From assembly GCA_964473815.1 (NCBI GenBank), contig CAYYQK010000002.1, positions 105,128-169,127 of the forward strand: a stretch of DNA of 64,000 nucleotides. The letters are read 5' to 3'. This stretch comes from an uncultured Candidatus Saccharibacteria bacterium (lineage in GTDB: Bacteria > Patescibacteriota > Doudnabacteria > UBA920). Position 1 is the stretch's first letter. Every line of letters starts with the position of its first letter. The notes beneath the pieces were generated by a model, which saw only the letters and a list, made by a program, of their open reading frames with translations, had not been told where the DNA came from and did no database searches. Of this stretch, positions 1 to 43,949 are shown in pieces. Both the position numbers and the translations under genes were made by a program.

Positions 1-52
1 TTTTGAAGTTTGTGCGCAATCGCAGTTCGAATCTTACGAACATGCCAAAGAT

Positions 53-412
53 ATGCAGGATTCTTTGCCGGACATCACAGTTCGCTGGAGGGATTGCCGG
101 CAAATTTACCGAAACATTCAGACTTTGCGCCATTCCGAGACAAGCTTCAAACAGGGCCTCGCTGAGTTGAGGCAATGTTTCGCTGACTCGTCTGCTGACC
201 GGCAGAAATATACGGAAGTCGCCGCCCTGATCAACTTTTTGAACGACAAAGGTCCTGAAGAGTTGCAAATTGAGGGTTGGAGCAAAGACCAAGCCAACGA
301 GGTTCCGCAGTGGTGGAAGAAAGTTTGCAATTTCTACGAGAAGTTAAGGGTTCAGGAAAAGACGGGACCGAATTATAACCAAATTTCTACTTTTCTCGAG
401 AAGTTCGGCTAG
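53..412 (+). CDS. hypothetical protein
   Basis: 119-aa ORF, moderate GC, no recognisable motif. Confidence 0.35.
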   Translation: MQDSLPDITVRWRDCRQIYRNIQTLRHSETSFKQGLAELRQCFADSSADRQKYTEVAALINFLNDKGPEELQIEGWSKDQANEVPQWWKKVCNFYEKLRVQEKTGPNYNQISTFLEKFG

Positions 413-473
413 CCTACTGCTTGTTCATTTATGAGCTGGGGTCGATGTAGCGTTTGCATCGACCCATTTTTTA

Positions 474-1082
474 TTGCATTATTTATTTATGACTAAATTT
501 TTAAAAGATATAACTTTTGATGAAATGTTTCGAATTTGGATCAATAACGAAATTGGTCAGGTCGAAAATCGTGATGTGTTGCCCGTGGCTAAAGCAAAAG
601 GTTTTAGTTCAGTTGCTGAGTGGCGGTTAACAACTGCGCTGCGTTTAGGGTTAGATAAATTAAATTGGCGTTTGGAAGAAATTGAAAATCCAGGAGAAGT
701 ATTGCCAAATGTGATTGTTGGTCCGTACCGCGGATGGTCGTTTCAAAAAGGAACTGAATTTTTTCAAAATGATTTAACTATCTCTTTTGCTCAAGCTTTG
801 GAAATTCCGGAGTTCTTTGAATTTTGTAATCATCATGATCGCGTTGTGCCATTGTCAGAAAATTTTCCATTACCAACTACAATTATTTTGGCACGCAAAC
901 CAGATGGTAAATTAATTCACATAGAAGGTGGTCATCGTATTTGCGCGGTGGCGTATGCTCAGAAAATTGGTAAACCTATTTTGTTCGAAGATCAACCACC
1001 AATAACCGCAGCAATTGCAGATGTAACAGAGGAAGACATTGCGCGCTTTATCGAAAAAGCCAAATCAGGTACGCAGAAATAA
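474..1082 (+). CDS. hypothetical protein, possible ParB/sulfiredoxin-like nuclease fold (motif IEGGHRICAV)
   Basis: 202-aa ORF; DGxHR-like motif resembles ParB N-terminal/Srx domain; followed by a rho-independent terminator. Confidence 0.4.
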   Translation: MHYLFMTKFLKDITFDEMFRIWINNEIGQVENRDVLPVAKAKGFSSVAEWRLTTALRLGLDKLNWRLEEIENPGEVLPNVIVGPYRGWSFQKGTEFFQNDLTISFAQALEIPEFFEFCNHHDRVVPLSENFPLPTTIILARKPDGKLIHIEGGHRICAVAYAQKIGKPILFEDQPPITAAIADVTEEDIARFIEKAKSGTQK

Positions 1083-1092
1083 TTTGCATAAC

Positions 1093-1122
1093 AAAAAACT
1101 CTCCTTTAGGGAGAGTTTTTTG
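1093..1122 (+). terminator. rho-independent terminator (aactctcc-ttta-gggagagtt + T-run)
   Basis: perfect 8-9 bp GC-containing stem followed by TTTTTT directly after stop of 474..1082. Confidence 0.7.
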
Positions 1123-1127
1123 ATGGA

Positions 1128-1152
1128 GCTCCATAGTACAGGACGTTAGAAC
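1128..1152. repeat. 25-bp direct repeat copy 1 (gctccatagtacaggacgttagaac)
   Basis: identical 25-mer recurs at 4611-4635; lies at the GC-content drop into the AT-rich region. Confidence 0.85.
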
Positions 1153-1175
1153 ATCTATTCTAGGAAGCAACTCAA

Positions 1176-1946
1176 TTACTTCCTTACAATTAGCAAAGAG
1201 TTAAAGTATGTTAATTCGTTATTTGTTGAAAATTTTAAAATTTCAGGCTTACATTGTACGTAAGTCTTAAGATCCATTTCAAACCATAACTTTACTGCTT
1301 CGCATAATTCATTGGGAGTATTAGCCCGAACGGTACATTCGATTTCTATTTCCTTAATATTACTATTGGATTTATCTAGAATATTAATCAGTTTGTCGTA
1401 CGAGTACGCGTAGTTTCTTTTAAAGGCCAAATCTTTAATACGTTTGTAGTCACCTTTGGGTTTATGAGTAACGAATAAAATCACTCCATCCTTATTAAGT
1501 AAAGAAAGCATCTTATCTATTGCATCGGTTTTATTCTGAAAATAGTAAAGTACATGACAAGCTAGGATCACATCATACTTTTGACTAGAGTTCCATTTCT
1601 CAAAGTCTTCGTTTACTATAGCCACATTCTTTTTATTGTAGGTATGTGCGTAATTAGAACTTTTTTCCAAGAGAGTTATATTTTTAACACTTGTTGGAAA
1701 TAGATGTGAACTAGTTAATGTATCTAACCCAGCCCCTATATTAAGAATTGATTTTGGTTGTATCTTATTAAGCAAGTTTAATATTTCACTCTCAACCTTT
1801 ACCTTTTCATTAGAGTGCTTAACAAATTGCTCAAATAATTTTTCAGGGAACTCAAATAGTATATTCATCTTATTTTGTAATAGAGAACTAAAGATAGTGA
1901 TTAAATCTGTCCTTTTTAGTTCTGATATAGTTGTGGTTATATTCAT
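1176..1946 (-). CDS. class I SAM-dependent methyltransferase (start may be internal Met at 1868, avoiding overlap with upstream gene)
   Basis: motif LNIGAGLDTL (SAM-binding motif I-like) and downstream acidic/hydrophobic motif II (YDVILACHVLYY). Confidence 0.55.
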   Translation of the reverse strand: MNITTTISELKRTDLITIFSSLLQNKMNILFEFPEKLFEQFVKHSNEKVKVESEILNLLNKIQPKSILNIGAGLDTLTSSHLFPTSVKNITLLEKSSNYAHTYNKKNVAIVNEDFEKWNSSQKYDVILACHVLYYFQNKTDAIDKMLSLLNKDGVILFVTHKPKGDYKRIKDLAFKRNYAYSYDKLINILDKSNSNIKEIEIECTVRANTPNELCEAVKLWFEMDLKTYVQCKPEILKFSTNNELTYFNSLLIVRK

Positions 1947-2460
1947 TGCTTTCGGTGATTAAATTAATTCTCTCAGTTACATTAATATCTAGGTTTTTTA
2001 TTGCAGTTACTTTGTCTGGATTATTTGTAAGTAGCTTAATGTTACATATTCCTAAGCTATTCAATATTGTCTTTACCTGTGAATACTCTCGAGCGTCTGG
2101 TAAATGCCCTAACATAACATTCGCATCATATGTGTCATACCCATTATCTTGTAATTGATAAGCTTTAACTTTTTCGTACAGGCCAATCCCTCTTCCCTCT
2201 TGTCTTAGATAAATGAATATTCCGTTTTGGGAGTTATTGATTAGTTTAAGAGCGAGTTCTTTTTGAGGACCGCAATCACATCGCAAACTCTTGAAGTTGT
2301 CGCCCGTAATACATTCACTATGAATTCTTACGATTACGGATTGTGTCTTATCTAGATTGGGGGTTTGAAGTACCAATGGTTCTTTACCATCTTTATCTTT
2401 CCAAACACTCATTACGAAATGACCGTATTTGGTCGGCAATATTGTAGATACAGATTCCAT
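1888..2460 (-). CDS. GTP cyclohydrolase II (RibA-like) stand-alone
   Basis: RIHSECITGDNFKSLRCDCGPQ zinc-binding Cys motif and RQEGRGIGL...KVKAYQLQDNGYDTYDAN signature typical of GCH II. Confidence 0.8.
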   Translation of the reverse strand: MESVSTILPTKYGHFVMSVWKDKDGKEPLVLQTPNLDKTQSVIVRIHSECITGDNFKSLRCDCGPQKELALKLINNSQNGIFIYLRQEGRGIGLYEKVKAYQLQDNGYDTYDANVMLGHLPDAREYSQVKTILNSLGICNIKLLTNNPDKVTAIKNLDINVTERINLITESNEYNHNYIRTKKDRFNHYL

Positions 2461-2461
2461 A

Positions 2462-3133
2462 TTATTTTTTCTTCCATTGCAGAATCATGTAGCCAGGATA
2501 GGTGTCTACGATTTTTTCTGCGGCTGGATCAAACTGCTCCTCAAATAACTCAAGGGTGAAGTGAGTCATCATAAAGGTCGAAAAGTATTCTTTAAGAGTA
2601 TGAGTCGGCTCTTTGAATGTAAGTAACCCATCAAAGCATACTGAATCTACTACTTCCTTTTTGAAGTAGTCTTTCCCTATTTTCTTCTTTTCGTACAGTT
2701 GTCTGATTGGATGCGCTACTAGAAAAGTAAAAGTCCCACCAGGTTTAAGTATCCGATAAACTTCCTTAAAAATTGGTTCTAATTCTTCGGCAGTCTGAAG
2801 CGCATATTTAGAGAATACGAAGTCGAAAGTACTGTCTTGATGAGGCAAAGAATCAAACACTCCGTATTTAAATTTAATACCCGAATATTTTTTTGATGCT
2901 ATATCAAGGAGTTCTTTTGAAGCATCTATACCATAAACAAGATCCGCACCTTGATCTTTGAAGAACTTACAGTCACTACCGTCACCACAACCAATATCTA
3001 ATACAACTCCTCCCTTAATAGTAGGAACTAGATTGCGATAAACTCTACGATTGTACTGCGCACCTTTTTCATAAACAGACTCAAAAGTGTCTGCGATCGA
3101 ATCGTATTGATGACTTAATTGATTTGAATTCAT
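2462..3133 (-). CDS. class I SAM-dependent methyltransferase (UbiE/COQ5-like fold)
   Basis: VLDIGCGDG motif I, acidic residue after beta2 (DAS), RILKPGG motif. Confidence 0.75.
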   Translation of the reverse strand: MNSNQLSHQYDSIADTFESVYEKGAQYNRRVYRNLVPTIKGGVVLDIGCGDGSDCKFFKDQGADLVYGIDASKELLDIASKKYSGIKFKYGVFDSLPHQDSTFDFVFSKYALQTAEELEPIFKEVYRILKPGGTFTFLVAHPIRQLYEKKKIGKDYFKKEVVDSVCFDGLLTFKEPTHTLKEYFSTFMMTHFTLELFEEQFDPAAEKIVDTYPGYMILQWKKK

Positions 3134-3144
3134 ATTGTAGCGAG

Positions 3145-3546
3145 TTAAAAATGTTTCTTAAAATCCAAAGAGGTATTCGCAATTTCATATGCCATATAAT
3201 CCATCTCTTTCCCTTCGTCGCAGATGAATTCATGTTTAACACCCTTTGGCACTATAACTACATCCCCTTGTTCTACGGGAATGTTGCCTTCTTCTGTTTG
3301 AAGAAAAGCCTTTCCTTTAATGATTACGCCGACAACGTGGGATATGTGGTGGTGCATTGGTTCGTTGTCATAACCATTAATGTGTACATAGTTAGCTGAT
3401 ACCTCGGTATTATGAGTGGAATCGAATAGGTCATTGATTCGTACAGGTGGAAGGGAAATAAATGCTGAGTTTCCATCTTTTATAAGTGATGATGAACTAG
3501 GTAAAACAGTACATTTATTTAGTTGTAGTAAATTAGCAATATTCAT
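3145..3546 (-). CDS. cupin-domain protein
   Basis: two-His/Glu cupin motifs HHHISHVVGVI...G...E...PKGVKHEF. Confidence 0.55.
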   Translation of the reverse strand: MNIANLLQLNKCTVLPSSSSLIKDGNSAFISLPPVRINDLFDSTHNTEVSANYVHINGYDNEPMHHHISHVVGVIIKGKAFLQTEEGNIPVEQGDVVIVPKGVKHEFICDEGKEMDYMAYEIANTSLDFKKHF

Positions 3547-3652
3547 AAGTTATAGAATTAATATTCTACGGACGCATCATACTATAAATTCTTGACTTAA
3601 TCATATTTTTGTGGTATTATTACAATATAGTGAACTTAAAGTGCAATAATAT

Positions 3653-4480
3653 ATGTTATTTTCTCCCAACGAATCAATAGAAGATGCCACAATTCGCCTT
3701 GTTTCTATGGGAAAAACGTCCCCTACTGATATCTTCGAAAGTCTTCAAAAAGAAGGCAATTCTATATCAAAAAGAGGGGTGTATAAAGCTATTCATTATT
3801 TGTTAGAGCACACAATTCTTGTAAAGAGTGGTAAAAAACTCTCGATCAGCCAAGAATGGGTAGATTCTGTAACTAGGGCATTAAAGAATAACTTTACTAT
3901 GCCTGTTCTAGCCGACGGAGAATCTGCTACATATAAGTACAAATCCTTAGTAAACCTTGATGCGTATTGGAAGCATCTAACTAAATCTCTCAAAGACCAG
4001 TACAGTACCTACCCTGTATTTTTGTACAGTCCTTATAATATTTGGCTACATTTAGCAGATAGAACTGAAAGTCAATTGGAGTATTATAGATCGTTTGAAA
4101 AGGAGCGAAGATATGGGTACCTCGTACTAGGCAATAGATCAGAATTAGATATGGAGTTTAAAAAAACACTGCAAAGTGAATTTTTGCAGATAGATACGTG
4201 GGACAAGCCTCCTTTCAAGGAAACAGAATACTACACTATAATTGATGACATTATCGTAACTACTAAGGTAGGACCGAAATTAACAAAGATTATAGCTAGT
4301 TTTTATAAAACCACTCCTACAATAGAAAGTAAGTCTAAGTTAAATCGTATTCTAGATATTACAGACATATCTAAGATTAAAATTGAAAGAAATAAAAAGA
4401 AAGCGAAATATCTTCGAAAAAGACTCTCTAAGAATTTCTACATACCAAAAGAGATTAAAGAACAGTTTGGTTTGTTCTAA
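3653..4480 (+). CDS. hypothetical protein
   Basis: 275-aa ORF inside AT-rich island, no recognisable motif. Confidence 0.4.
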   Translation: MLFSPNESIEDATIRLVSMGKTSPTDIFESLQKEGNSISKRGVYKAIHYLLEHTILVKSGKKLSISQEWVDSVTRALKNNFTMPVLADGESATYKYKSLVNLDAYWKHLTKSLKDQYSTYPVFLYSPYNIWLHLADRTESQLEYYRSFEKERRYGYLVLGNRSELDMEFKKTLQSEFLQIDTWDKPPFKETEYYTIIDDIIVTTKVGPKLTKIIASFYKTTPTIESKSKLNRILDITDISKIKIERNKKKAKYLRKRLSKNFYIPKEIKEQFGLF

Positions 4481-4610
4481 AATAAATAAAGCACCTGTAT
4501 AAGGTGTTTTATTATTGTTACCCCCTAATGAAATTCAATCGAATCAATTTGGAGTAGATTTTACAGCATCTTTGTGATTTTCCTAAGAAATTTGAAGGGT
4601 TCAAAATAGT

Positions 4611-4635
4611 GCTCCATAGTACAGGACGTTAGAAC
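4611..4635. repeat. 25-bp direct repeat copy 2 (gctccatagtacaggacgttagaac)
   Basis: identical to 1128-1152. Confidence 0.85.
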
Positions 4636-4658
4636 TAGTCTAGTAACTGTTTTATGAG

Positions 4659-5369
4659 TTACGGATTAGTGTCAGATTGAGCTACAAAATGTGGATTTTG
4701 AAACCTAATACTACACTCTGGGCAAATATAAGAAGTAACTGTTGTACTTATGTTTCTCGGGTATTTACAGGAAGGGCAAGGTAAATACTCATTAGAATGA
4801 GGTGTTTGTTTTATATGTTCTTCCCAAGGAAGTATAAAATCTTTTACATAATCTATATCACCTCTTTTGTATCTATGAAACATCGTCTTAAGTACGGCCT
4901 CGCATGCCATCTCTGTAATTCTCTTTTCGTCTTCTGTAAATGCTTCGTATTCGTCTAATGGTTCATATTGCTTAGTATTCTGTATATGTATACGATCTCG
5001 TAACTTTTTAACTCTTTCTAATAAGTCATAAAATCTTTCATCTGGAGCTGAGAAAATATTGTGTTTGCGAGAGTTATCTAAATACTTCTGAAACGCATTT
5101 ATTTCTTTCCCTCTAATCTCGTTAATAATATCTGTGGCTATATTTCTTACTCCTTCAATTGTGAATTTATTTACTCGGTAGTAAAAATCATGAAGCACTG
5201 CTTCAATAATTGAGCTTATAAATATAATTATAGGTTTACATAAATAACGTTTTTCGTTTGTTGAGGCTCTATCGTATTGACGGTAAAGATAGATAAGTAT
5301 TTTAGTATTGTGGTTAATGTTATCACCGACTTTGTATGAACCGATGAAATTAGATTTTACTGTAAACAT
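4659..5369 (-). CDS. hypothetical protein with C-terminal zinc-ribbon (CPSCKY...CPEC)
   Basis: 236-aa ORF; CxxC...CxxC at C-terminus; start abuts stop of upstream SRAP gene (operon). Confidence 0.45.
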   Translation of the reverse strand: MFTVKSNFIGSYKVGDNINHNTKILIYLYRQYDRASTNEKRYLCKPIIIFISSIIEAVLHDFYYRVNKFTIEGVRNIATDIINEIRGKEINAFQKYLDNSRKHNIFSAPDERFYDLLERVKKLRDRIHIQNTKQYEPLDEYEAFTEDEKRITEMACEAVLKTMFHRYKRGDIDYVKDFILPWEEHIKQTPHSNEYLPCPSCKYPRNISTTVTSYICPECSIRFQNPHFVAQSDTNP

Positions 5370-6038
5370 TTATTTGCTATTCTGGGCTGGTAACAATATG
5401 TCAGGGTGATCGTTACTAGGTTTATTTACTAAAGTAGAAATAGGGTAAGAAACCATCTCAGTTGCAGGATAAGGCTGTAATAAATTAATTGCTTCCTCTG
5501 CTTCTATGTCAGGATTCATCCAATCTTTCTCACTAGTAGGTGTTAATATCACGGGCATTCTGTTGTGAACATTCTCAACTACCTCGTTAGGTGTAGTAGT
5601 AATGATAACACTGTGGGGTACTTTGTTTCCTTGAGCGTCTGTTTCGTATTGCCATAAACCTGCAAAGGCAAAAGGTTCCCTATCCTTAAGTTCAAATCTG
5701 TAAGGAACCTTGAGTTTCGAATCTGGTTGTTTTTGCCATTCATAGAATCCATCAGCAAGAATTAGACAACGTTGTTCAGCAATCATCTTTTTCCAAGTTG
5801 GTTTTACCATGCTGTCATTACGGGCATTTATAAAGAACATCTTACCAGTCTTGTCGTAAAATGGATGAATCCCCCATTGCGTATAAACTATCTCGTTCGG
5901 ATCTGTATTCAAGATGGTAGGTATAGGCTGGGAAGGTCGGACATTATATCTGGGATCAACTGGGCTTTCGTTATAGCCTGCGTTGAATCTTTGAGATAAG
6001 TCTCTAAATGGATGAATTACTGAAAATGCTCCGCACAT
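5370..6038 (-). CDS. SOS-response associated peptidase (SRAP/YedK/HMCES family)
   Basis: N-terminal MCGAF (catalytic Cys2), length and conserved W/H pattern typical of SRAP. Confidence 0.7.
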   Translation of the reverse strand: MCGAFSVIHPFRDLSQRFNAGYNESPVDPRYNVRPSQPIPTILNTDPNEIVYTQWGIHPFYDKTGKMFFINARNDSMVKPTWKKMIAEQRCLILADGFYEWQKQPDSKLKVPYRFELKDREPFAFAGLWQYETDAQGNKVPHSVIITTTPNEVVENVHNRMPVILTPTSEKDWMNPDIEAEEAINLLQPYPATEMVSYPISTLVNKPSNDHPDILLPAQNSK

Positions 6039-6402
6039 GATGAATTTGTTAAGTTATGTAAAGTTTTGTGTGGATAACTGATTGATAAAATATAAAATAT
6101 GGCTTATTTGTGAGGAGAGACCATCTTTTATACCTGCCAAATCACTCTGATATACTGAAGTTAGTAGAACTTTACAACCTGTATTCCACTTTTTGACCAT
6201 CTTTTGGAGTACCGGGCTAAGGGCATCCCTTTTAGGGACTTGTTCTACGCCCGACTATCAATTATTTCTGAGTGGAATCGGAAATGGTTGATTGGCCCGG
6301 AACTCTAGCAGGTGGTTTTATTTTACCACTTGTTGGGAAAAACCAATGGGGCGCCCCTGTAGCAGTCGACTGATTGGATTATTAATCCGAAAGGAAGCAA
6401 TA

Positions 6403-6558
6403 ATGCCTATCCCCGTTGGAATGATCTGTCGCCCGTACATTACGGTAGACGGTCAGAAGATTTGGGCTAAGGATTACGGTAAAAAAGCCTTTTGTTTCTT
6501 CCCTTCTCTTAAGAAGGGGAAAAAGAAAAAGCCTGAAGCCGTAAAACTTCAAGCCTAA
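6403..6558 (+). CDS. small basic ORF (51 aa, Lys-rich C-terminus) with SD and downstream terminator
   Basis: AGGAAG 6 nt upstream of ATG at 6403; followed by hairpin+T-run at ~6575-6615; no homology recognised. Confidence 0.2.
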   Translation: MPIPVGMICRPYITVDGQKIWAKDYGKKAFCFFPSLKKGKKKKPEAVKLQA

Positions 6559-6574
6559 CTTCACCTTATAAAAC

Positions 6575-6615
6575 ACTCGTTTGGGTACCCATTCGGGTGT
6601 TTTATGTTTTAGGAG
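6575..6615 (+). terminator. rho-independent terminator (aaacactcg...cgggtgttt + T-run)
   Basis: 9-bp stem with G-U, loop containing gggtaccc palindrome, followed by TTTTATGTTTT. Confidence 0.5.
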
Positions 6616-6765
6616 TATAACCCCCAAATCACAGTCTCTAGATTCTGGGTTTAGGGATTATTGAACAATACTATCTTATATAAGAAATATAGTCAATTCA
6701 TATCATTTGTACATGAAATGTATATCTATTATACCATATTCTTATCCACAACCTTTAACACCCTT

Positions 6766-7857
6766 TTAGGTACCTGATTTAAGACGATTGTCTTCTTTGC
6801 ATAACATTTGGCAATTTTCTGATGTAGTTTTACCACCCTCATGCCATGGTTTGATATGATCTGCTTCCATCTCTTCTATCTCAAAATGTTTCTTGCATTT
6901 TGGACAAACTCCTTTTTGCCTTTCGTATGCTTCACGTTTCATCTTATCGTTGAAAGCTCTAATAGAAAGAAGTCTTTCTTTTCTGGTTAACACATAAGGA
7001 TATATACCAGACTTCTTTGTTACATCTTCATCCTGCATAAGTTTAGATACTTCTTCTTCTAATTCTTTAGGATTCAATGTTGTCTCTTTAAATTCATTGT
7101 ACAATTCACCCCAGTTCACTCCAGCCATTTCTTTACGGTAGTTGGTGAAAGTGCTTCTAGACCAAGATATAACTTTCTGGAAATATTCCCAAAGTTCTTT
7201 AGCATCTTTGTCATGTTGATGGGATGCCATGTATCCAGCTATGTCGCCATTATTAATCCAACTCAATGCTGTTTCTAAATAGTCTTGTCTTATAGGAGAT
7301 CCATGTAACAAAGAACCGCCATCATTAGCTAACAGATATGCTGCACAATTTGATTTACTAAACTTTAATTTTGCATCTGATAACCAAGGTCCTGTATAGA
7401 CAGCATTACGTAATTCTTGTTCAGTTAATCGTTCTCCTGCAATATTGATAGTTCTGAACCAGTTCAATCTTTCTATGTCTGTTCCTTCGCAAAAGTAAAC
7501 CATTAATTCATAGTTCAGAATTTGCTCTTGCTCCTCCTTGGTAAGATTATGGAAATATCGATCATTTAAAGAAAAGTCTCCTGTCACATACTGACCAATA
7601 CTTATAGTTCGCTGTTGTCCGTCCAATACTTCGAAGTTTCCATCTTCTCGAACCATCCAATACATAACATTCAATGGAAAGTCGTGAGTTATAGTGTTGA
7701 TTACTGCATCTCGTTGCTGGTCTTTATACACAAACTCTCTTTGATATTTTGGACGAACATCTAGTTTACCAGCATATGCAACTACACCTTCTTCTGCACT
7801 ATCTTTGTAACCTTCAGTAATTTCTCGTATAGAAATTTTATTTAGTTCAATTTTCAT
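6766..7857 (-). CDS. DUF262 (ParB-like nuclease, DGQQR motif) fused to C-terminal HNH endonuclease; GmrSD-related putative restriction endonuclease
   Basis: VLDGQQRTISI motif of DUF262; C-terminal CPKC...ADHIKPWHEGG...N...LC HNH motif; start overlaps stop of upstream MTase (ATGA). Confidence 0.7.
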   Translation of the reverse strand: MKIELNKISIREITEGYKDSAEEGVVAYAGKLDVRPKYQREFVYKDQQRDAVINTITHDFPLNVMYWMVREDGNFEVLDGQQRTISIGQYVTGDFSLNDRYFHNLTKEEQEQILNYELMVYFCEGTDIERLNWFRTINIAGERLTEQELRNAVYTGPWLSDAKLKFSKSNCAAYLLANDGGSLLHGSPIRQDYLETALSWINNGDIAGYMASHQHDKDAKELWEYFQKVISWSRSTFTNYRKEMAGVNWGELYNEFKETTLNPKELEEEVSKLMQDEDVTKKSGIYPYVLTRKERLLSIRAFNDKMKREAYERQKGVCPKCKKHFEIEEMEADHIKPWHEGGKTTSENCQMLCKEDNRLKSGT

Positions 7858-8963
7858 TAGGATTCCTTATTTCTAATTAAAAGTCTAGCATACACAGCTT
7901 TAAAGCCTTCTGGTGTTTTTAGTACACTCCTTGCGTTCAAATCATTATATTTAGGGTGATCATCTATTGTATATTTTTTCTTACGCATCCCTGATGTATT
8001 TTGTCTATCGGTAATACCAAGTATTTCAAATTGTTCAGGATTGTACTTATCTAAGAAAGTAATAGGTACGCCCATTGTATCTTTGTAATCTTTAGGAATA
8101 TCAGAAGTTTTACTTACTTCAATTGCATCATAGTTGTCATAGTGTGGATACTCTTCCGGAGAATAATTTTTGTATAAGACTAAATCCGTATGACGTTCTG
8201 TGTAATCTAGATTTGTAAACCAACGAACACCTTTCACTCGAATAAATTTATTACCCTCACTATCCACTCTTGTCCCGGCTGCATTGAGAGGGTAATCATC
8301 AGGAACTCTGAACTCTCTATCACCACTATGAATACTTTGCCCTAACCACATTTTGTTATGTTGGACTAGAGGAAATACTTCTTTGTAAGTTATAGCATTG
8401 ATGTTTCCAAGTACTAGGAACTTTTTATTGTGTTCGACTAGCTGTGCTATAAATTCTCGGAATAAAGAGAATGGTGGATTCGTAACAACAATATCTGATT
8501 CCTTTAACAGATTAATACATTCGTCGCTACGAAAATCGCCGCTACCTTTTAATGGTGTTGCTGAGTTTTTGTCATGCTGAAGTAGAAACTTAACATCATC
8601 TAAATTAATAGCACCATCCCCGTCTGTATCAGGTACAGCATTGATCTCTAACTTAAATGGTTCTAATCCTGTTGGCTTCAGTCCCTCCATCTCAAATAAG
8701 GGTAATTGTCTTCCCACAATTGGAGACTTCATGTAGCTAGTGCTGATAAGTTTCTTCAAACCTAAAGCATTAAAGTTTGCAGCAAAGTATTTAAAAAAAT
8801 TACTTTCAAAAGGGTCATCACAGTTACAATACACCACCTTATCCCTAAATTGTTCTTTATAATGTTTAAGCTCTTTTTCAATATCAACTAGTTGAGTATA
8901 AAACTCATCTTTTTTAGCTTGTCCTGCTTGGTTTAAATTTGTGTTTAAGGGAGTATTAGGCAT
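7857..8963 (-). CDS. N6-adenine DNA methyltransferase
   Basis: catalytic motif IV NPPF (IVVTNPPFS), N-terminal DEFYTQ motif; SAM-binding fold. Confidence 0.75.
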   Translation of the reverse strand: MPNTPLNTNLNQAGQAKKDEFYTQLVDIEKELKHYKEQFRDKVVYCNCDDPFESNFFKYFAANFNALGLKKLISTSYMKSPIVGRQLPLFEMEGLKPTGLEPFKLEINAVPDTDGDGAINLDDVKFLLQHDKNSATPLKGSGDFRSDECINLLKESDIVVTNPPFSLFREFIAQLVEHNKKFLVLGNINAITYKEVFPLVQHNKMWLGQSIHSGDREFRVPDDYPLNAAGTRVDSEGNKFIRVKGVRWFTNLDYTERHTDLVLYKNYSPEEYPHYDNYDAIEVSKTSDIPKDYKDTMGVPITFLDKYNPEQFEILGITDRQNTSGMRKKKYTIDDHPKYNDLNARSVLKTPEGFKAVYARLLIRNKES

Positions 8964-9267
8964 TAAAGTTGACTTAACTAAAGTAATTATAGACTTATCC
9001 GAGGAAAAAGAGAATATGAGTGTGTATAATGAAAGGTATACTATCGTACACCTATGAAACTGATAATATTTTTCTTCGTAAAACTACCTCGACATTCCCC
9101 TTGTCCTGACCATTGGCTAATGCTACCCCCCACTGCTCAAAATTACGGAACCATTTGTAAAAAGTGCCTTTGGAAGACACTACCAACAGGAGGAAATATG
9201 AGACCAGTAAAGTTATTTAACAGGTATTGGAATCATTAAAAAATTGGTATAATACCAACACAACACA

Positions 9268-9672
9268 TTGCCTAACCCCTACTTTGTAGGATATGGCATT
9301 AAATCCGATCAAGATATAGAACCTCTCGTCAGGGTCCTTGATCGGTCGTATCTGGAAACGGATATGTTGATCCGAAAGGGTCAAACTTGGCGGGGGGCTT
9401 TTTGTTCCCCAGTCATACAATTAAAACCGATCAAGGAAATGTCTAAATTGAATACTAAAAAAGTAATAGGTTTCCTATTACGACCTTTGTCATTATTTAT
9501 AGTATTGGTGCTACTGTACTGGGGGTTTACTTCTTCTGGAGATGTTAAGGAAATAGCGTTGAACTTCATTATTATTGCTATGTCCATAATGGTTGTCGGA
9601 ATTATATTTAATGATGTTTGGGATAGTGATGAAGTGCCTAATTGGATTCGTAAGTATTTTAGAAAGAGATAA
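9268..9672 (+). CDS. hypothetical small membrane protein
   Basis: 134-aa ORF with TM helices (LLRPLSLFIVLVLLYWGF; IIIAMSIMVVGIIF). Confidence 0.3.
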   Translation: MPNPYFVGYGIKSDQDIEPLVRVLDRSYLETDMLIRKGQTWRGAFCSPVIQLKPIKEMSKLNTKKVIGFLLRPLSLFIVLVLLYWGFTSSGDVKEIALNFIIIAMSIMVVGIIFNDVWDSDEVPNWIRKYFRKR

Positions 9673-10235
9673 TGTCAGCAGAATTAATAACATTTTTCCA
9701 TAACTCCGACGAATTACGTTCGGAGTTTTCTCATAAGGATTCAAATAGACCATGTTTCTATTGGTTTGCTGACAGATTCCATAGTCATACTGGTTATCTA
9801 AAAAAAGATAAGTATTTCTATATGTTTGTAAAAGACCCAATTAAAGAATCAATCACATTAATACCTCGTAATAATGAGGACCATAGTTTTCATGCTTTGT
9901 ACAACGACTTCCTTTTCTTTAAACACAATACAGATTATCAGGAATATTTAGAGCCTCCTATTTTAATGTCGTATGATAGAATCGTTCCTGATTTGATTGC
10001 AGAATACTCAGAAGAAACAAATGAGTATAAGATTGTGAAACCAGATATCTTTAAACATATGCGATTCAAGTTATATGACGATTCATATAAACATCAATGG
10101 GCTAAAGGTCCAAAATTTACAGATATTCAAGTATTGAATAAATCGCTCCCTTTACTAGCAAATTCATTGCCGCTAACTGATCCTAAAATCAGAAATGGAA
10201 AGTATATTTTCAAAAACTGGTTAGGTGCATATTAG
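9672..10235 (+). CDS. hypothetical protein
   Basis: 187-aa ORF in island, start overlaps preceding ORF. Confidence 0.4.
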   Translation: MSAELITFFHNSDELRSEFSHKDSNRPCFYWFADRFHSHTGYLKKDKYFYMFVKDPIKESITLIPRNNEDHSFHALYNDFLFFKHNTDYQEYLEPPILMSYDRIVPDLIAEYSEETNEYKIVKPDIFKHMRFKLYDDSYKHQWAKGPKFTDIQVLNKSLPLLANSLPLTDPKIRNGKYIFKNWLGAY

Positions 10236-10371
10236 TGCATATTTTGAAAAACTAAGATTACGTCACTTTAGGTCGTAATTAAATACCTTTGATAATTAGG
10301 TTAAACGCTATGTATTTCGCGCAAAACTAGCTCAAATTCATGCGTTTATATCGGAAACCAAGAGTTATATA

Positions 10372-10400
10372 TTGACGCACAGAAAACTCTAAAGTACAAT
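10372..10400 (+). promoter_or_regulatory. sigma70-like promoter (TTGACG-17-TACAAT)
   Basis: near-consensus -35/-10 with 17-bp spacer upstream of 10511 ORF. Confidence 0.4.
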
Positions 10401-10510
10401 GCTTTTACTGGATAAAGAAAATTAGAGAAGAAACCTCTCGTTTCGGCAACTAATGCCCCAGATAAAAAACTCGTGCTAACCATGGCACCATAATTAAGTT
10501 TTTTATCGGG

Positions 10511-10882
10511 GTGTTGTTTTTTACCAACACACTCGATGTTGGTTTTATTATGCCTAGAATAAAGTTTGGTTATGATTCAAATTACATTAAAGTGTATGGA
10601 CGAGCTCAATCGCATTTCAATTTAAGACCCATAGAAGGTTTACTTTTGGGTTTGGTAGAAAGTATGTCTTCTCAAAAAGGTTATTGCTATGCAACCAAGG
10701 AAACTTTGGCAGGAATATTGAATGTAAATACAAGCACTGTCTATTACACAATGAACAAGTTAATTAGAAAAGGTTTATTGATTTCCAAACCAGTAGGATT
10801 CAGTAAAGCGCAATTAATGTGTACAGATGAATGGTATGACTTTATAGGAGAACTTAGACAAAGTTTTTCGCCAGATGATTAA
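10511..10882 (+). CDS. winged-helix DNA-binding protein (MarR/PadR-like), possible island regulator; start may be 10550
   Basis: motif ETLAGILNVNTSTVYYTMNKLIRKGLL resembles wHTH recognition helix. Confidence 0.4.
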   Translation: MLFFTNTLDVGFIMPRIKFGYDSNYIKVYGRAQSHFNLRPIEGLLLGLVESMSSQKGYCYATKETLAGILNVNTSTVYYTMNKLIRKGLLISKPVGFSKAQLMCTDEWYDFIGELRQSFSPDD

Positions 10883-11407
10883 TGTCAATTTGTGGTTCTA
10901 GATCCATTTAGCCTCCGAATTTCAGAATGGCCCTATTAAATTCAGAGTCCTAAGACTATGAAATTAAAAGTAAAAATACTCTTAAATTCAGAGCTAATAT
11001 ATATAATCATATTTATAAATCATATTTAAAGATTAATACCCATATTTTGTAAAATATACAAAATATGGGAAACAGCACAAGATAATGAATCAAATAAATG
11101 AAAAACAAATACAAGAATTTATAGATCTATATAAGTTAAAGTATGGAGTAACTATAAGTCGTGAAGAAGCTATCATTCAATCAAGAAAATTATTAGATCT
11201 TGTTAAGCTTGTTTATAAACCAATAAAAAAAGATTCTGATAAAGAGTAGTTGTCCCCCGTGCCAAGAGGAATCGTATCAGTGATAATGTAATTAACAACT
11301 ATCACGTGCCTAGCTAACAATTTGTTTTGATAATTCCTTTATTGGAATAGTCTTTATCTGAAACATTGGGTTCGGATAGTTGTTGAGACTATTCCTTTTT
11401 TGTATTT

Positions 11408-13081
11408 ATGAAAGTATCTAATCCAAAACTTAGATATGTGGTTTATGCACGTAAATCCACTGATTCCGAAGATAGACAGGTTCAATCAGTAGACGACCAA
11501 TTAAGAGAGCTAGAACCAATTATTACCCAAAACAGCCTAAATGTAGTTAGGTATTTTGAGGAATCTAAGTCTGCCAAAAGACGTGGAAGACCAATGTTTA
11601 ATGAAATGATGGATATGATTCAAAATGGTAAAGCTGATGGTATTATTTGTTGGAAACCAAATCGGTTATCCCGTAATGCATATGACGGAGGACTGATACA
11701 AGGAATGCTTACTGATAATATTATTCAATCCATAGTTACTCCATCTAAAGAGCATTTGCCCCAAGATAACGTTATGTTATTAACTGTTGAATTAGGCATG
11801 GCTAATCAGTTTAGTTTGGATTTGGGGCGTGATGTTAGCCGTGGAATGCAGAGTAAAGCAAATAAAGGGTGGTTACCTGAGAAAGCACCACTAGGATACC
11901 TTAACGATCCGCTAGGTTTGAAAGGTGAAAAGAAAATATTTATTGATGAGGAAAGATTCCCATTAGTTAGAAAAATGTGGGACTTGATGTTAACAGGAAA
12001 CTATACTGTTAAGCAATTAAGAGATCTTTCCCATAATGAATGGGGTTTGAAGACAAGGGCTAGTAGGAATCTATCTAGCAAGATGCTAAGTCTGAGCGGA
12101 GCGTATAGAATATTCACAAATACATTTTATTATGGCGAGTATTCATATAAAGGAGAGGTAATTCAAGGTAAACATCAACCCATGGTAACTAAGGAAGAAT
12201 TTGATCGAGTCCAAAAGTTACTTGGTAGAGCTGGTAAACCGAGACCTAAATATAAACGATTGCCATTTAATGGTGTGATTAGATGTGGAGAATGTGGATC
12301 CATGATTACTTGTGATGAGAAAGTGAAACGTTCAAAACAACCAAATGTACAGCCAAAGCATTATTTATATCACAGATGTACAGGTAAGAGTCATGATTCT
12401 TGTTTTCAAGAACCAATCACCTATCAGGATCTAGCTAATCAAATTACTGGTTATCTTGGTAGTATTACTATATCTCAAGAACTATTAGAATGGTCATTAA
12501 AAATATTGCGTCAAAATAATCAAATAGAAGACACTAATCGCTCCATAATAATAAAAAACCTAAAAAAAGATTTGGAGTCCGTTTCAGAAAAGAATAAGAA
12601 TTTGATTGATCTCTTTCTTTCAGGAAGTAATAAAGATCGAAGTATGCTCACTGAAGAAGAATATATCAATCAGAAGAATACTTTTACAGCTGAGAAATCT
12701 AGAATTGAAGGTGAATTAAGAAAAATTGAAACTAATGACGGTGGTTTACTTGAGTTAACTGAGAAGACATTTGAGTTTGCTACTTATGCTAGATCTCATT
12801 TCCAAAATGGCGACTATGAAACACAAACTCGTATATTACTGAATCTTGGGCAGAAAATAGTCTTAAAAGATAAAAAGCTAGTTATAGAATTACAGAAACC
12901 TTACTCAATTATAAAAAATGGACTAGAAAAAATGAGTTCAATTATGATATCGGTCGAACAAGAAGAACGCCTTATACCTAAAAGGAAAAACACTCCTTTA
13001 GAGAGTGTTTATTCCATGTGGAGCGGCCAAGGGGAATCGAACCCCTATCCCTTCCTTGGCAAGGAAGAGTTCTACCATTGA
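11408..13081 (+). CDS. large serine recombinase (resolvase/invertase catalytic domain + recombinase domain + zinc ribbon)
   Basis: N-terminal YVVYARKSTDSEDRQ...SVDDQ catalytic-Ser motif; CGECGS...HRCTG zinc ribbon; coiled-coil C-terminus; last ~63 nt overlap tRNA-Gly on opposite strand. Confidence 0.85.
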   Translation: MKVSNPKLRYVVYARKSTDSEDRQVQSVDDQLRELEPIITQNSLNVVRYFEESKSAKRRGRPMFNEMMDMIQNGKADGIICWKPNRLSRNAYDGGLIQGMLTDNIIQSIVTPSKEHLPQDNVMLLTVELGMANQFSLDLGRDVSRGMQSKANKGWLPEKAPLGYLNDPLGLKGEKKIFIDEERFPLVRKMWDLMLTGNYTVKQLRDLSHNEWGLKTRASRNLSSKMLSLSGAYRIFTNTFYYGEYSYKGEVIQGKHQPMVTKEEFDRVQKLLGRAGKPRPKYKRLPFNGVIRCGECGSMITCDEKVKRSKQPNVQPKHYLYHRCTGKSHDSCFQEPITYQDLANQITGYLGSITISQELLEWSLKILRQNNQIEDTNRSIIIKNLKKDLESVSEKNKNLIDLFLSGSNKDRSMLTEEEYINQKNTFTAEKSRIEGELRKIETNDGGLLELTEKTFEFATYARSHFQNGDYETQTRILLNLGQKIVLKDKKLVIELQKPYSIIKNGLEKMSSIMISVEQEERLIPKRKNTPLESVYSMWSGQGESNPYPFLGKEEFYH

Positions 13082-13092
13082 ACCATGGCCGC
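13019..13092 (-). tRNA. tRNA-Gly (GCC)
   Basis: cloverleaf read by eye: acceptor GCGGCCA/TGGCCGC, anticodon loop TTGCCAA, T-loop GGTTCGATTCC, encoded CCA. Confidence 0.85.
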
Positions 13093-13122
13093 ACGCTATT
13101 ATAAATATAAGTAAATTTTTGC

Positions 13123-13197
13123 TGGTGCCGCGAGTCAGAATTGAACTGACGACACGACGCTCTTCAGGCGTCTGCTCTACCACTGAGCTACCGCGGC
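13123..13197 (-). tRNA. tRNA-Phe (GAA)
   Basis: acceptor GCCGCGG, D-arm GCTCAGTGGTAGAGC, anticodon loop CTGAAGA, T-loop TTCAATT, CCA. Confidence 0.85.
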
Positions 13198-13220
13198 ATA
13201 AATGTGGTTTTAATTTTTGT

Positions 13221-13297
13221 TGGTGGGCGATAAAGGATTCGAACCTTTGACATCTTCGGTGTAAACGAAGCGCTCTGACCAGCTGAGCTAATCGCCC
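13221..13297 (-). tRNA. tRNA-Val (TAC)
   Basis: acceptor GGGCGAT/ATCGCCC, anticodon loop TTTACAC, T-loop GGTTCGAATCC, CCA. Confidence 0.85.
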
Positions 13298-13332
13298 TAA
13301 TGTTCGCTTGTGCGAAAACTTTGTAAAATTTT

Positions 13333-13419
13333 TGGTGCCCGAGAGAGGACTTGAACCTCCACGGGATTAATCCCACTACCACCTCAAGGTAGCGCGTCTG
13401 CCAGTTCCGCCACCCGGGC
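13333..13419 (-). tRNA. tRNA-Leu (GAG), long variable arm
   Basis: acceptor GCCCGGG, anticodon loop TTGAGGT, long extra arm, T-loop GGTTCAAGTCC, CCA. Confidence 0.85.
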
Positions 13420-13497
13420 TTGGGAACAATTTATCCAAAAATCCTTCTAATTATAGTGCAGATTATGGAAATTGTCCAGTCTCTCTTAATTTTGATG

Positions 13498-14448
13498 CTA
13501 GATAACCTTCCAATGCCCGCGATCATCTTTGGCTAAACGACCGTATAAAGAAAATCCGGCTGCGAGTTTGTGTCCCCCGCCACCCAAAGATTGGGCAATA
13601 GCTTGCACATCAACCCCTTTGTACTCTTCACTGCGCAAGCTGCCTTTAATCAGATCTTCTTTTTCTTGTTTTAAAAACATTGCAAATTTGGCCTCCGGAA
13701 CCTTATTTAAGGTTTCGGCGATACCTTCAAAAGCAGACATTGGCGGATTACCCAAAGATGCCAGTTCATCGCTGGTGATAACTGAATAGATCATTTTTTT
13801 GACTGGATCGTAGTGTGCATTTCCCAGCGCATGCGCCCAGGCTTTTAAACTTTCTAAATCTTTAGTTTGGTAAGTGTGTTTTGTGATAGTCGATACCCGC
13901 GCGCCGTGTTCCATTAATTCCGCTGCAGCTGCGAGCGTGCTCGCCTCTGTGTTGCTGTGCATAAAAATTCCTGTATCAGTAATAATTCCTGTCAGCATGC
14001 ATAGCGCAATGTCATGCGTAATTTCCCAACCGCAAAATTTAAAAAAATCATAAGTTAGTTCAGCTACCGCAGATTTAGTAGAATCAACCACATTCACTGT
14101 ACCGTAATTGGTATTGTCTGGATGATGATCTAAATTAATAATTGGAATTTTTAATTCCATAATTTCTGCGTGTCCCACGCGAGCCAAACTACTACAGCCA
14201 GAAATTACTAATACATCAAATTTTTCATTGGGTAATTTTTCTAGAACTTTGTCCGACATTGGTAAATATTTCAAAGCATCGGGAACACCGCCTTCAATTA
14301 CAACGGCAACCTTTTTGCCAATGCCAGAAAGAAAATTGCCCAAAGCTAAAACCGAACCGAGGTCATCACCGTCGGTTCTCATGTGCGTAGTTAATAAAAT
14401 TGTATTGCTTTCTTCAAGCAATTTTTTAGCCTGTGCAAATTCTGTCAT
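13498..14448 (-). CDS. nrnA: DHH/DHHA1 phosphoesterase (NrnA-like oligoribonuclease/pAp phosphatase)
   Basis: DHH motif (LDHHPDN), DGDDLGS, C-terminal GGGGH (DHHA1). Confidence 0.75.
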   Translation of the reverse strand: MTEFAQAKKLLEESNTILLTTHMRTDGDDLGSVLALGNFLSGIGKKVAVVIEGGVPDALKYLPMSDKVLEKLPNEKFDVLVISGCSSLARVGHAEIMELKIPIINLDHHPDNTNYGTVNVVDSTKSAVAELTYDFFKFCGWEITHDIALCMLTGIITDTGIFMHSNTEASTLAAAAELMEHGARVSTITKHTYQTKDLESLKAWAHALGNAHYDPVKKMIYSVITSDELASLGNPPMSAFEGIAETLNKVPEAKFAMFLKQEKEDLIKGSLRSEEYKGVDVQAIAQSLGGGGHKLAAGFSLYGRLAKDDRGHWKVI

Positions 14449-14449
14449 G

Positions 14450-14806
14450 CTACTCTTCCTCTTCTTCGTGAATTTCTTTGATGATCTCGTCGATGTGTTG
14501 TGCGTATCGCGGCGTTGTATCTAAGAAAAATTGTAAGCGAGGTGTCATTTTCATTCCTAAATGCCGATTCAGCTCGCCTTGAATATCGTAAAGATTTGAA
14601 TTAATTTCGGAAAAAATCGCATCATCATCGCCACCGACAATTGAGATATAAACTTTTGCCCAGCGCGAATCGCCACTGGTTTCTACTCGGGAAACCGTAA
14701 CAAGACCGCCATTGGTTTCAATGGTGTCTTTTAAAATTTCACCAACTTGCTGCTGGATTAAAGAGTTTAATTTTTCTTTGCGATTGGTAGGTTTAGGGGT
14801 AGTCAT
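14450..14806 (-). CDS. rbfA: ribosome-binding factor A
   Basis: length, KH-like RbfA pattern, position immediately downstream of infB operon. Confidence 0.8.
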   Translation of the reverse strand: MTTPKPTNRKEKLNSLIQQQVGEILKDTIETNGGLVTVSRVETSGDSRWAKVYISIVGGDDDAIFSEINSNLYDIQGELNRHLGMKMTPRLQFFLDTTPRYAQHIDEIIKEIHEEEEE

Positions 14807-41099: not shown

Positions 41100-41600
41100 A
41101 TGAACCGATTGTTTGCAAAAATTATTCTTGCTTCCGCATTAACTTTAGTTAGCGTTTTAGGTGTATCGATAGTCTCTTCTGCCCCACAAGTTTTTGCGCA
41201 AAACACGCAGCCTACTGACAAGCCAACCAATGGCGAAAAAGGTGGTTTTGTTCCTTGCGGTAATACTGCTGATAATCCTTGCACGGTCGGACATTTGTTT
41301 GCCGCGTTCGTTGTGATTGTGAATTACTTAATTAGTATGGCAGGTTTTGTAGCAGTATTCTTTATAGTGTTCGCGGGGTTGCAAATGGTTTCCTCGCAAG
41401 GACAAGAAAAACTTGCCGCATCAAAAAAAAGATTAACCGGCGCGATTACTGGTTTGGTTATAGTGGCGCTTGCTTTTGTATTAGCTAACGCATTATTCGC
41501 TGGAAGTCTAAGCGTGGGAGTAAAAGATGGCCCAAGCATTTTAGCAAATCCGCTCGACTATATTAGTAAAGCCGAGTTAAGTAATACAAATTCTAAGTAA
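41100..41600 (+). CDS. pilin-like small secreted protein, paralog 1 of 7 (signal peptide, Cys-containing N-domain, 2 TM, conserved Q/S-G-N/Q...K-K/G-R motif)
   Basis: architecture shared with six downstream genes; motif MVSSQGQEKLAASKKRLTGAITGLVIVALAF; resembles CPR T4SS-pilin/TrbC-like family. Confidence 0.6.
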   Translation: MNRLFAKIILASALTLVSVLGVSIVSSAPQVFAQNTQPTDKPTNGEKGGFVPCGNTADNPCTVGHLFAAFVVIVNYLISMAGFVAVFFIVFAGLQMVSSQGQEKLAASKKRLTGAITGLVIVALAFVLANALFAGSLSVGVKDGPSILANPLDYISKAELSNTNSK

Positions 41601-42044
41601 ATGAAATTCTTCTCAAAACTAAAATCCGTCATAACCATTCTAGGCTTTGCCGTTTTGTTGATGGTCTTTCTGAATCAGTTGGTCATATCTACACCACAGA
41701 CTTATGCTGCTAATAGCAACAGTAATACTGTAAAGGCCATTTTAGGAGCGAACGCCAATATCCCCGATGCAAAGGTCGTCACACCGGCAAAAATATCTAA
41801 CCCTGTTGGAACTGACTCATTGCTTGGAGTCGGGACTAAACTAATAAAATTCTTGCTGGGATTAATTGTTATCGTAGCGGTTATCGCTATTGTAATTGCT
41901 GGTTTTAGAATGATCACCGGCGGTGCGAACCCATCACAAATTGCCCAAGCTAAACGCGCAATTATTTGGGCGATTGTTGGGTTAGCAGTCGCATTATTCT
42001 CTTTTGCGATAATCGAAATGGTTAATACCTTTATAGCTAAATAG
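41601..42044 (+). CDS. pilin-like small secreted protein, paralog 2 of 7
   Basis: signal peptide; ITGGANPSQIAQAKRAIIWAIVGLAVALFSF C-terminal module. Confidence 0.6.
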   Translation: MKFFSKLKSVITILGFAVLLMVFLNQLVISTPQTYAANSNSNTVKAILGANANIPDAKVVTPAKISNPVGTDSLLGVGTKLIKFLLGLIVIVAVIAIVIAGFRMITGGANPSQIAQAKRAIIWAIVGLAVALFSFAIIEMVNTFIAK

Positions 42045-42045
42045 T

Positions 42046-42927: not shown

Positions 42928-42935
42928 ATAAAATA

Positions 42936-43346: not shown

Positions 43347-43408
43347 TCTGTGAGATATAGTAAAATAAAGCTAGGTTATTTAAAGCTTAAAACTTTTCCC
43401 GAAAGGCG

Positions 43409-43837: not shown

Positions 43838-43949
43838 ACTTACTACAATTTCTTTTCCCGCATTGTTTTTATACTTGCGGGATAGTTCTGGGAACGAAAG
43901 TTAAGACTACTACTTTTGTTTCCAGAACTATTAAAAACATAAAAATCGA

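Follow-up and report, generated by a model that had tools for sequence, protein, structure and literature searches.

What a gene for GTP cyclohydrolase II (GCH II) may serve when it lies between two methyltransferase genes and apart from any other riboflavin gene is the question raised by a small operon in a 64,000-nucleotide stretch of DNA from an uncultured Candidatus Saccharibacteria bacterium (GenBank assembly GCA_964473815.1, contig CAYYQK010000002.1, positions 105,128 to 169,127 of the forward strand), the whole of which is referred to below as the window. The operon is read from the minus strand and encodes, in the order of transcription, a cupin (3145-3546; 133 aa), a class-I S-adenosylmethionine (SAM) methyltransferase (MTase), here MTase-A (2462-3133; 223 aa), a GCH II of the canonical RibA type (1888-2460; 190 aa) and a second SAM methyltransferase, MTase-B (1176-1946; 256 aa), and a fifth gene, an open reading frame (ORF) of 275 aa on the plus strand (3653-4480), diverges from it. 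This is a real, conserved accessory operon that is not described in the literature searched. We tentatively propose, giving it somewhat less than an even chance, that the five-gene unit combines a putative regulator with a GCH II-initiated pathway to a methylated pyrimidine-type compound.

A sequence-only reading of this DNA had described four co-directional, tightly packed genes on the minus strand, and that description holds: the ORFs are found at these coordinates, and Pfam and NCBIfam agree on each of them. The genes are spaced by gaps of 11 nt and 1 nt and then by an overlap of 59 nt between GCH II and MTase-B (1888-1946), and their order is repeated in three further species-level variants. 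What has to be enlarged is the notion of a four-gene module, since the divergent 275-aa ORF is kept beside the operon in every related locus (loci are designated below by L or P numbers; here L001-L010) and belongs to the unit. The 106 bp between the divergent genes (3547-3652) presumably hold the promoters of both; promoter-like sequences occur on the plus strand (TTGACT-17-TATTAT with TG, 3592-3620) and on the minus strand (TTGATT-18-TATATT, 3677-3648), the count of such sites being not above the shuffled expectation. At the distal end, a hairpin with T-runs on both strands (1099-1113) lies between the convergent MTase-B gene and a 202-aa ORF and is probably a bidirectional terminator closing the operon. 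A permissive Rfam scan of window positions 1-14000 found no RNA element on the module, the only hits being tRNAs, a LOOT RNA and matches at chance level.

The GCH II scores 181 bits against PF00925 (cut-off 23.3), 232 bits against TIGR00505 ribA (cut-off 205.85) and 236 bits against PRK00393 (cut-off 148), and it aligns end to end with the RibA proteins of E. coli (2bz0, E 1e-43, 43% identical) and H. pylori (4rl4). An alignment of 117 RibA-like proteins has 45 columns with a conservation of 95% or more, and all of them (45/45) are retained, in three species, including C54, C65, C67, Y105, R128 and K154 in E. coli numbering, where we take the three cysteines to be the Zn-binding triad and Tyr105, Arg128 and Lys154 to be catalytic. 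Because all 45 invariant positions are kept, chemistry of the canonical RibA type is to be expected from the sequence; the curated models class the enzyme as RibA, and they are models with which ToxB is not separable from RibA. In the literature searched, no paper ties GCH II to Saccharibacteria, to Patescibacteria or to a cupin/MTase cluster, and nothing turned up on DVU_1556.

The most ordinary use of such an enzyme would be riboflavin metabolism, with this GCH II as the organism's ribA, the other rib genes at a different place in the genome and no relation to the adjacent MTases. The protein does pass the RibA equivalog-domain model and matches RibA at all invariant sites, and ribA is unlinked to the other rib genes in some bacteria, E. 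coli among them, while control by an FMN riboswitch is common, not universal. The stand-alone position of the gene, from which the sequence-only reading had argued against riboflavin, is therefore weak as an argument by itself; the conclusion that was drawn from it is nevertheless backed by both the window and the lineage. None of the RibD, RibB, RibH, RibE and RibF domains is found in the ~49 ORFs scanned across the 64-kb window, which bears out the earlier statement that no rib genes lie nearby, and the permissive Rfam scan detected no FMN riboswitch in window positions 1-14000. Saccharibacteria are reported to be without guanine-nucleotide, vitamin and cofactor modules, whatever the genome size (PMC11659515), TM7 reconstructions show zero FAD producibility and no annotated FAD-using reactions (PMC6609349), and Parcubacteria are without rib genes and ribF (PMC4508563). 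Moreover, the gene sits in a rare, A+T-rich, laterally exchanged unit and not in the core genome. Because the window holds neither rib genes nor an FMN riboswitch and the lineage is reported without cofactor synthesis, there are strong grounds to regard a riboflavin role of this GCH II as very unlikely, and we consider the explanation by ordinary riboflavin metabolism highly improbable. Compared with the RibA of riboflavin synthesis, the enzyme thus keeps its conserved residues and differs in its setting, a rare mobile unit in which MTase genes flank it on both sides and no FMN riboswitch is found.

The conservation and the mobility of the unit can be read from its relatives. All five genes are, by comparison of their sequences, under purifying selection, with dN/dS values of 0.01-0.25 (cupin 0.08; MTase-A 0.015-0.04; GCH II 0.05-0.10; MTase-B 0.16-0.25; 275-aa ORF 0.014-0.046) against 0.05 for the reference gene IF-2. 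The G+C content of the module is 33% in each of the four genomes in which it occurs, where the remainder of the locus has 39-42%, and between L008 and L010 its dS is 0.16-0.30, against ~1.7 for the flanking IF-2 and DHH genes. This low dS points to a recent lateral exchange of the whole unit, at one chromosomal site, between two Saccharibacteria lineages, and we regard the unit on these data as accessory DNA moving as a block. The module itself is without a recombinase. Viral contigs yielded no relative, and carriage by phages was rejected on this ground. Because the GCH II gene lies between the MTase genes, overlaps one of them, is under selection and has been transferred with them as a block, a functional coupling of GCH II to the MTases is plausible, if unproven.

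Whether such a coupling makes chemical sense depends on what the two MTases are likely to methylate. MTase-A scores 76 bits against Methyltransf_11 and 71 bits against Methyltransf_25 and reaches no NCBIfam equivalog cut-off. Its family comprises ~100 clusters, almost all from Patescibacteria or DPANN archaea, whose members carry only the label 'class I SAM MTase' and no functional name. MTase-B scores 47 bits against Methyltransf_23 and belongs to a very small family of its own, always paired with MTase-A: a word-indexed search of 5.8 billion proteins gave five 90%-identity clusters, a full HMMER profile search of 1.84 billion gave six representatives below 1e-30, and its profile matched, on species-representative genomes, only Candidatus Saccharibacteria metagenome-assembled genomes (MAGs), one Paceibacterota MAG and one 'uncultured bacterium' MAG. 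The AlphaFold (AF2) model of MTase-B (pLDDT 78, pTM 0.76) has as its nearest PDB fold in Foldseek the human histamine N-methyltransferase (TM 0.70-0.72), followed by neighbours that include BioC, HvrF, trans-aconitate methyltransferase (Tam), the plantazolicin N-methyltransferases BamL/BpumL, pavine N-methyltransferase and NodS. The 50 best structural matches of the model are all enzymes acting on small molecules, with no RNA or DNA methyltransferase among them; the best PDB sequence matches are BpumL and BioC. As judged from the model, MTase-B is most likely an N-/O-methyltransferase of the small-molecule type, superposing best on class-I enzymes of this kind (histamine N-methyltransferase, BioC, BamL/BpumL, NodS), from which it differs in sequence, with an identity of 14-19%.

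These results also bear on the alternative that the MTases modify RNA or DNA, for instance by a methylation of rRNA or tRNA bases that confers resistance, with the cupin and GCH II as accessories. Weak matches to RlmA (PRK11088, 45.5 bits; 1p91, E 1.8e-8), Erm and KsgA, the fusion of distant MTase-B relatives to MTS/PrmA-like MTase domains and a generic MTase-domain match of PADLOC to mad2 are what one would cite in its favour. However, the equivalog cut-offs are far from reached (45.5 vs 303 bits for RlmA, 17.9 vs 212 for Erm and 16 vs 171 for KsgA), the structural neighbours of MTase-B are small-molecule enzymes, and an RNA- or DNA-binding domain is not present. The sequence-only reading had itself named homology to rRNA or tRNA MTases as a finding that would overturn it, and such homology is not what the scores and the fold neighbours of MTase-B indicate; a nucleic acid substrate is accordingly, in our estimate, improbable.

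The cupin and the divergent ORF are the remaining parts of the unit. The cupin scores 36.8 bits against Cupin_2 (cut-off 27.2) and 35.3 bits against AraC_binding, also above the cut-off, and its best PDB match is plu4264 (4mv2, E 4.5e-4). Its H-x-H-x-x-H element (HHHISH) and the His of KHEF in motif 2 are conserved in four species, including the 65%-identical ortholog in L024; the canonical Glu of the cupin metal site is not present, and the predicted metal site is probably of the 3-His type. A cupin near MTase-A in L019 was considered as a member of the same cupin family and rejected, the match covering 40 residues only (E 0.003). The 275-aa ORF falls into no assigned family; it has a 59%-identical ortholog of 274 aa in L024 and, in a locus of Nanoarchaeota, a weak homolog close to MTase-A (25%, E 2.5e-7). 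Over residues 15-62, two of its orthologs give sub-threshold matches to the MCM_C winged helix-turn-helix (E 0.04 and 0.0012) and to FUR (0.08 and 0.12), which weakly suggests that it may be a winged-helix regulator of the operon. It has no PDB sequence match; its single-sequence AF2 model is unusable (pLDDT 37), and homology to TrmB was rejected after BLASTP and hhalign were both negative.

From these parts the following pathway can be proposed. GCH II, with its complete RibA active site, would turn salvaged GTP into 2,5-diamino-6-(5-phospho-D-ribosylamino)pyrimidin-4(3H)-one, formate and pyrophosphate. The reactive, ring-opened nucleotide would not be taken to riboflavin, as the downstream enzymes appear to be lacking according to the window and the lineage literature; MTase-A and MTase-B could instead methylate the diaminopyrimidinone nucleotide, or a base or riboside derived from it by loss of the phosphate or the ribose. 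The His-rich cupin might then, more speculatively, carry out a metal-dependent tailoring step (oxidation, rearrangement or hydrolysis). The product would be a methylated metabolite of the aminopyrimidine type, with a possible role as antimetabolite, redox-active compound or signal between the symbiont and its host. A precedent for a RibA-type GCH II that feeds a non-riboflavin aminopyrimidine, with no azapteridine ring being made, is VC1 in the vicine/convicine synthesis of faba bean, a plant pathway that differs from the one proposed here in using glucosylation instead of methylation.

Several points weigh against this proposal, and a first group of them emerges from the comparison with the toxoflavin family, to which the sequence-only reading had drawn its closest analogy. 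In pseudoiodinine synthesis, psdA-G encode two MTases, a VOC-superfamily protein, a GCH II, a RibD, a WD40 protein and a SUMF-type protein; the early steps are common with toxoflavin synthesis, and the WD40-type (ToxC/PsdE) and SUMF-type (ToxD/PsdC) proteins are proposed to form the N-N bond (PMC9911603). The toxABCDE and psdA-G operons share with the module the presence of GCH II and SAM MTases in one operon, to which psd adds the resemblance of two MTases and a small protein of a metalloenzyme superfamily, and they divert GTP from the riboflavin route into a specialised metabolite, the same logic as is proposed here. To this extent the analogy stands. It fails in that a RibD-like deaminase/reductase (ToxE/PsdG) is found neither in the module nor in related loci or the scanned ORFs of the window, and WD40 (ToxC/PsdE) and SUMF (ToxD/PsdC) domains are found neither in the module nor among its neighbours, so that the known azapteridine chemistry is not to be assumed. 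Furthermore, the small metalloenzyme of the module is a cupin and not a VOC/glyoxalase-type protein, and its host is an episymbiont of the Candidate Phyla Radiation (CPR), whereas the tox and psd operons belong to a pseudomonad, Burkholderia and a streptomycete. A kinship of the MTases with ToxA, a dual N-methyltransferase with which the earlier reading had proposed a comparison, likewise did not stand out in PDB sequence searches: the top match of MTase-A is 3bkw (6e-16), with ToxA at rank 10 (8rdl, 3e-10; 5jdz, 6e-8) behind nine unrelated class-I MTases and over residues 8-147, which points to generic class-I similarity, and MTase-B has no match to ToxA at all. On sequence grounds, the module is thus not a member of the toxoflavin family and shares with it at most a general logic, that of GTP being opened by GCH II and then methylated.

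A second group of adverse points comes from the distribution of the genes. The full five-gene arrangement is limited to one small clade (the window's species, an 87% variant and the species of L008 and L010), and the linkage of GCH II to the MTases is therefore that of one clade and one evolutionary event. By contextual look-up, MTase-A and MTase-B always stand side by side or are fused. L011, L013, L016, L026 and L027 have, after MTase-A, a protein in which MTase-B is fused to a ~140-aa domain similar to the ligand-binding domain at the C-terminus of TrmB regulators (E ~1e-6), while L028 and P0226 unite a class-I MTase domain of generic kind (26% identity with MTase-A), a TrmB-C-like domain and MTase-B in one protein; these loci lack both GCH II and the cupin. 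L024 holds the 274-aa ORF, the cupin and MTase-A (76% identical) with neither GCH II nor MTase-B, a 33-aa stub after its MTase-A having been considered as a GCH II remnant and rejected for want of any similarity. Finally, L005 carries a lone GCH II, 57% identical, in a genome that is related, as its flanking genes are homologous to those of L024. Since the MTase pair, the trio of regulator, cupin and MTase-A and the lone GCH II each occur separately, the parts of the unit can work independently. That the MTase pair and also the cupin/MTase-A pair are found elsewhere without GCH II weakens the earlier assumption of a single pathway formed by all four genes. It should be added that the search for rib genes, on which the case against riboflavin partly draws, covered the 64-kb window of this genome.

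The related loci offer some further observations on how these genes are combined, with MTase-A as the hub of a changing set of partners. The sites of L005 (6877-9149) and L024 (3194-11239) have in common their flanks, an RsgA-like GTPase (62% identical) and an ORF of 167/172 aa, between which stand the lone GCH II in the former and UvrD, the 274-aa ORF, the cupin, MTase-A, an RRM protein and a LOG-like gene in the latter; the site has the look of a hot-spot of variation among related genomes. In L013 (1321-5781), MTase-A, the TrmB-C-like/MTase-B fusion, a 153-aa ORF, a third MTase, a LOG-like protein and a HAD hydrolase lie between two ORFs that by eye resemble tyrosine recombinases, and the segment may be a larger nucleotide- or base-modification cassette. 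The 153-aa ORF also resembles the TrmB-C-like domain by eye, the sole similarity detected being that to the L029 fusion (E 1e-5). L017 has a phosphoribosyltransferase and another MTase after MTase-A, and in Nanoarchaeota MTase-A stands with a divergent TrmB regulator.

The same distribution is what would be expected if the transcript served two functions, with the regulator, the cupin and the MTases modifying, detoxifying or conferring resistance to a small molecule, from the host or the environment, that is unrelated to GTP, and with GCH II as a passenger engaged, for example, in sanitising the guanine-nucleotide pool. In other CPR and DPANN genomes MTase-A occurs alone, with the cupin or with MTase-B, in each case without GCH II, frequently under the control of a divergent regulator and on islands of variable content, and the lone GCH II of L005 fits this picture too. 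A sanitising role would have a documented basis, in that E. coli RibA hydrolyses 8-oxo-dGTP, as stated in the passage of PMC6092379 that cites this activity (Kobayashi 1998, cited in PMC6092379). Against this explanation, the GCH II gene lies exactly between MTase genes that are otherwise adjacent, with its 59-nt overlap with MTase-B, under purifying selection and transferred in one block with them, and the residues for ring opening are all retained, not only those for the release of pyrophosphate. We hold an arrangement of two functions on one transcript to be unlikely, though it has to be taken seriously.

The preferred reading, a GCH II-initiated pathway to a methylated pyrimidine, draws some further support from the company that MTase-A keeps. 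In the full-unit clade, GCH II occupies the position that is held elsewhere by the TrmB-C-like domain, and the partners of MTase-A that act on nucleotides or bases include, besides GCH II, the phosphoribosyltransferase of L017 and the LOG-like genes of L013 and L024. The invariant pairing of the MTases together with such partners favours, as circumstantial evidence, a substrate of the nucleobase or nucleotide type. A more specific form of the reading, in which a mobile, regulated and GTP-spending pathway dispenses with the RibD, ToxC and ToxD chemistry and yields a new methylated aminopyrimidine or heterocycle that acts on the bacterial host as a toxin, antimetabolite or signal, is one that we put forward with considerable doubt; its setting would be Saccharibacteria, which are regarded as having almost no biosynthetic or secondary metabolism and as relying on the host for their GTP.

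The sequence-only reading had placed the module on a genomic island, and the relatives of the locus show a different order of events. Window positions 1126-4517 and 13019-14707 are contiguous in the related genome L010 (BLASTN synteny), and in three related species the module adjoins the 3' end of a tRNA-Gly gene (13019-13092, minus strand, in the window), the site at which it is found in L008 and L010. In the window, an island of 8.5 kb (4518-13018) has been inserted at the exact 3' end of this tRNA-Gly; since L008 and L010 hold the module at tRNA-Gly without the island, the latter is a separate, later insertion beside a resident module. The island carries genes for an SRAP protein (5370-6038), a GmrSD_N+HNH nuclease (6766-7857; PADLOC REase_II, 473 bits), an EcoRI-like adenine methylase (7857-8963) and a large serine recombinase of 557 aa (11408-13081), the last ~21 codons of which run antisense into the tRNA-Gly gene. 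There is a strong match to the LOOT RNA motif (RF03000; 76 bits, the gathering score being 46.4) at 9269-9383 on the plus strand, with which the ORF at 9268-9672 overlaps at its start, and a 236-aa ORF and an HTH_36 protein are further components of the island.

With a restriction-modification pair and SRAP next door, and with defences by nucleotide depletion being known, one may ask whether the module defends against phages, or works as an abortive system, through a depletion of GTP by GCH II upon infection. No PADLOC model matches GCH II, the cupin or the 275-aa ORF, the module having given only generic MTase-domain matches; the neighbouring island is the later insertion, and L008 and L010 have the module without it; the viral contigs held no relatives; and the two MTases would be given no role. 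Of the explanations considered here, defence seems to us the most improbable.

The claim that 25-bp repeats flank the module is accurate as to position. The repeat GCTCCATAGTACAGGACGTTAGAAC occurs exactly at 1128-1152 and 4611-4635, where chance would give an expectation of 0, and the two copies bracket all five genes; the second, however, lies inside the separately inserted 8.5-kb island. The repeat is part of a motif of ~27 nt, which on the gene strand reads GTTCTAAC[GA][TC]CCTGTACTATGGAGC and of which the window holds one copy at 1126-1152 (minus strand), 24 nt past the stop codon of MTase-B and between this and the hairpin at 1099-1113, and another at 4609-4635 (minus strand), 24 nt past the stop of the 236-aa ORF of the island. 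The latter copy falls within an element of 117 bp (4519-4635) at the left end of the island, which has no counterpart at that position in L010 and is 77-79% identical to two intergenic copies in L008. Three copies of the motif in L008 (10797-10821, 11443-11467 and 12520-12544) follow MTase-B, an AAA_33 kinase-like gene and a 320-aa gene. The core is nearly invariant across species in which the flanks are ~78% identical, and the motif is always found 11-27 nt past a stop codon, that of the preceding gene on its strand, the genes in question being successive small accessory ones. Rfam gave no match to it. As the second copy belongs to a later insertion and the motif recurs just 3' of genes in relatives, the repeats were rejected as ends of a mobile element. 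Such a motif may mark the boundaries of cassettes, in the manner of an attC site, or serve as an element at the 3' ends of RNAs.

Downstream of the module in L008 (10938-13944), an AAA_33/zeta-toxin-like kinase, two ORFs and an IMP-cyclohydrolase-like protein are encoded by genes separated by the 27-nt motif. The two ORFs share a 5' segment, both beginning with ...FCYTGFMNN, and the IMP-cyclohydrolase-like protein is of the archaeal type (PF07826, 112 bits), which is odd for a lineage reported without purine synthesis. In the window itself, two ORFs lie to the left of the first motif copy, at 53-412 (152 aa as called in L006) and 474-1082 (202 aa); they are not conserved beside the module in L008 and hence fall outside the unit. 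Elsewhere in the window, genes for IF-2, bactofilin, RecA and RNase III fit a Saccharibacteria lineage, and six consecutive paralogs of a type IV secretion system pilin (PF18895/TrbC) are found on the plus strand at 41100-45207.

CPR bacteria, or Patescibacteria, are seen as metabolically minimal symbionts, and their chemical interaction with their hosts is largely unknown. The unit described here, of ~3.4 kb, is a concrete and clonable candidate for a metabolite made by such an organism. If the coupling of GCH II to the MTases is not real, the unit still defines an MTase pair specific to CPR and DPANN genomes, and a stand-alone RibA persists in a lineage reported without cofactor synthesis. 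If the coupling is real, chemistry derived from GCH II extends beyond riboflavin and the toxoflavin family; and should the more specific reading, with a new methylated compound directed at the bacterial host, prove true, CPR bacteria would have a first pathway to a specialised metabolite, and the chemistry that starts from GCH II would gain a new branch.

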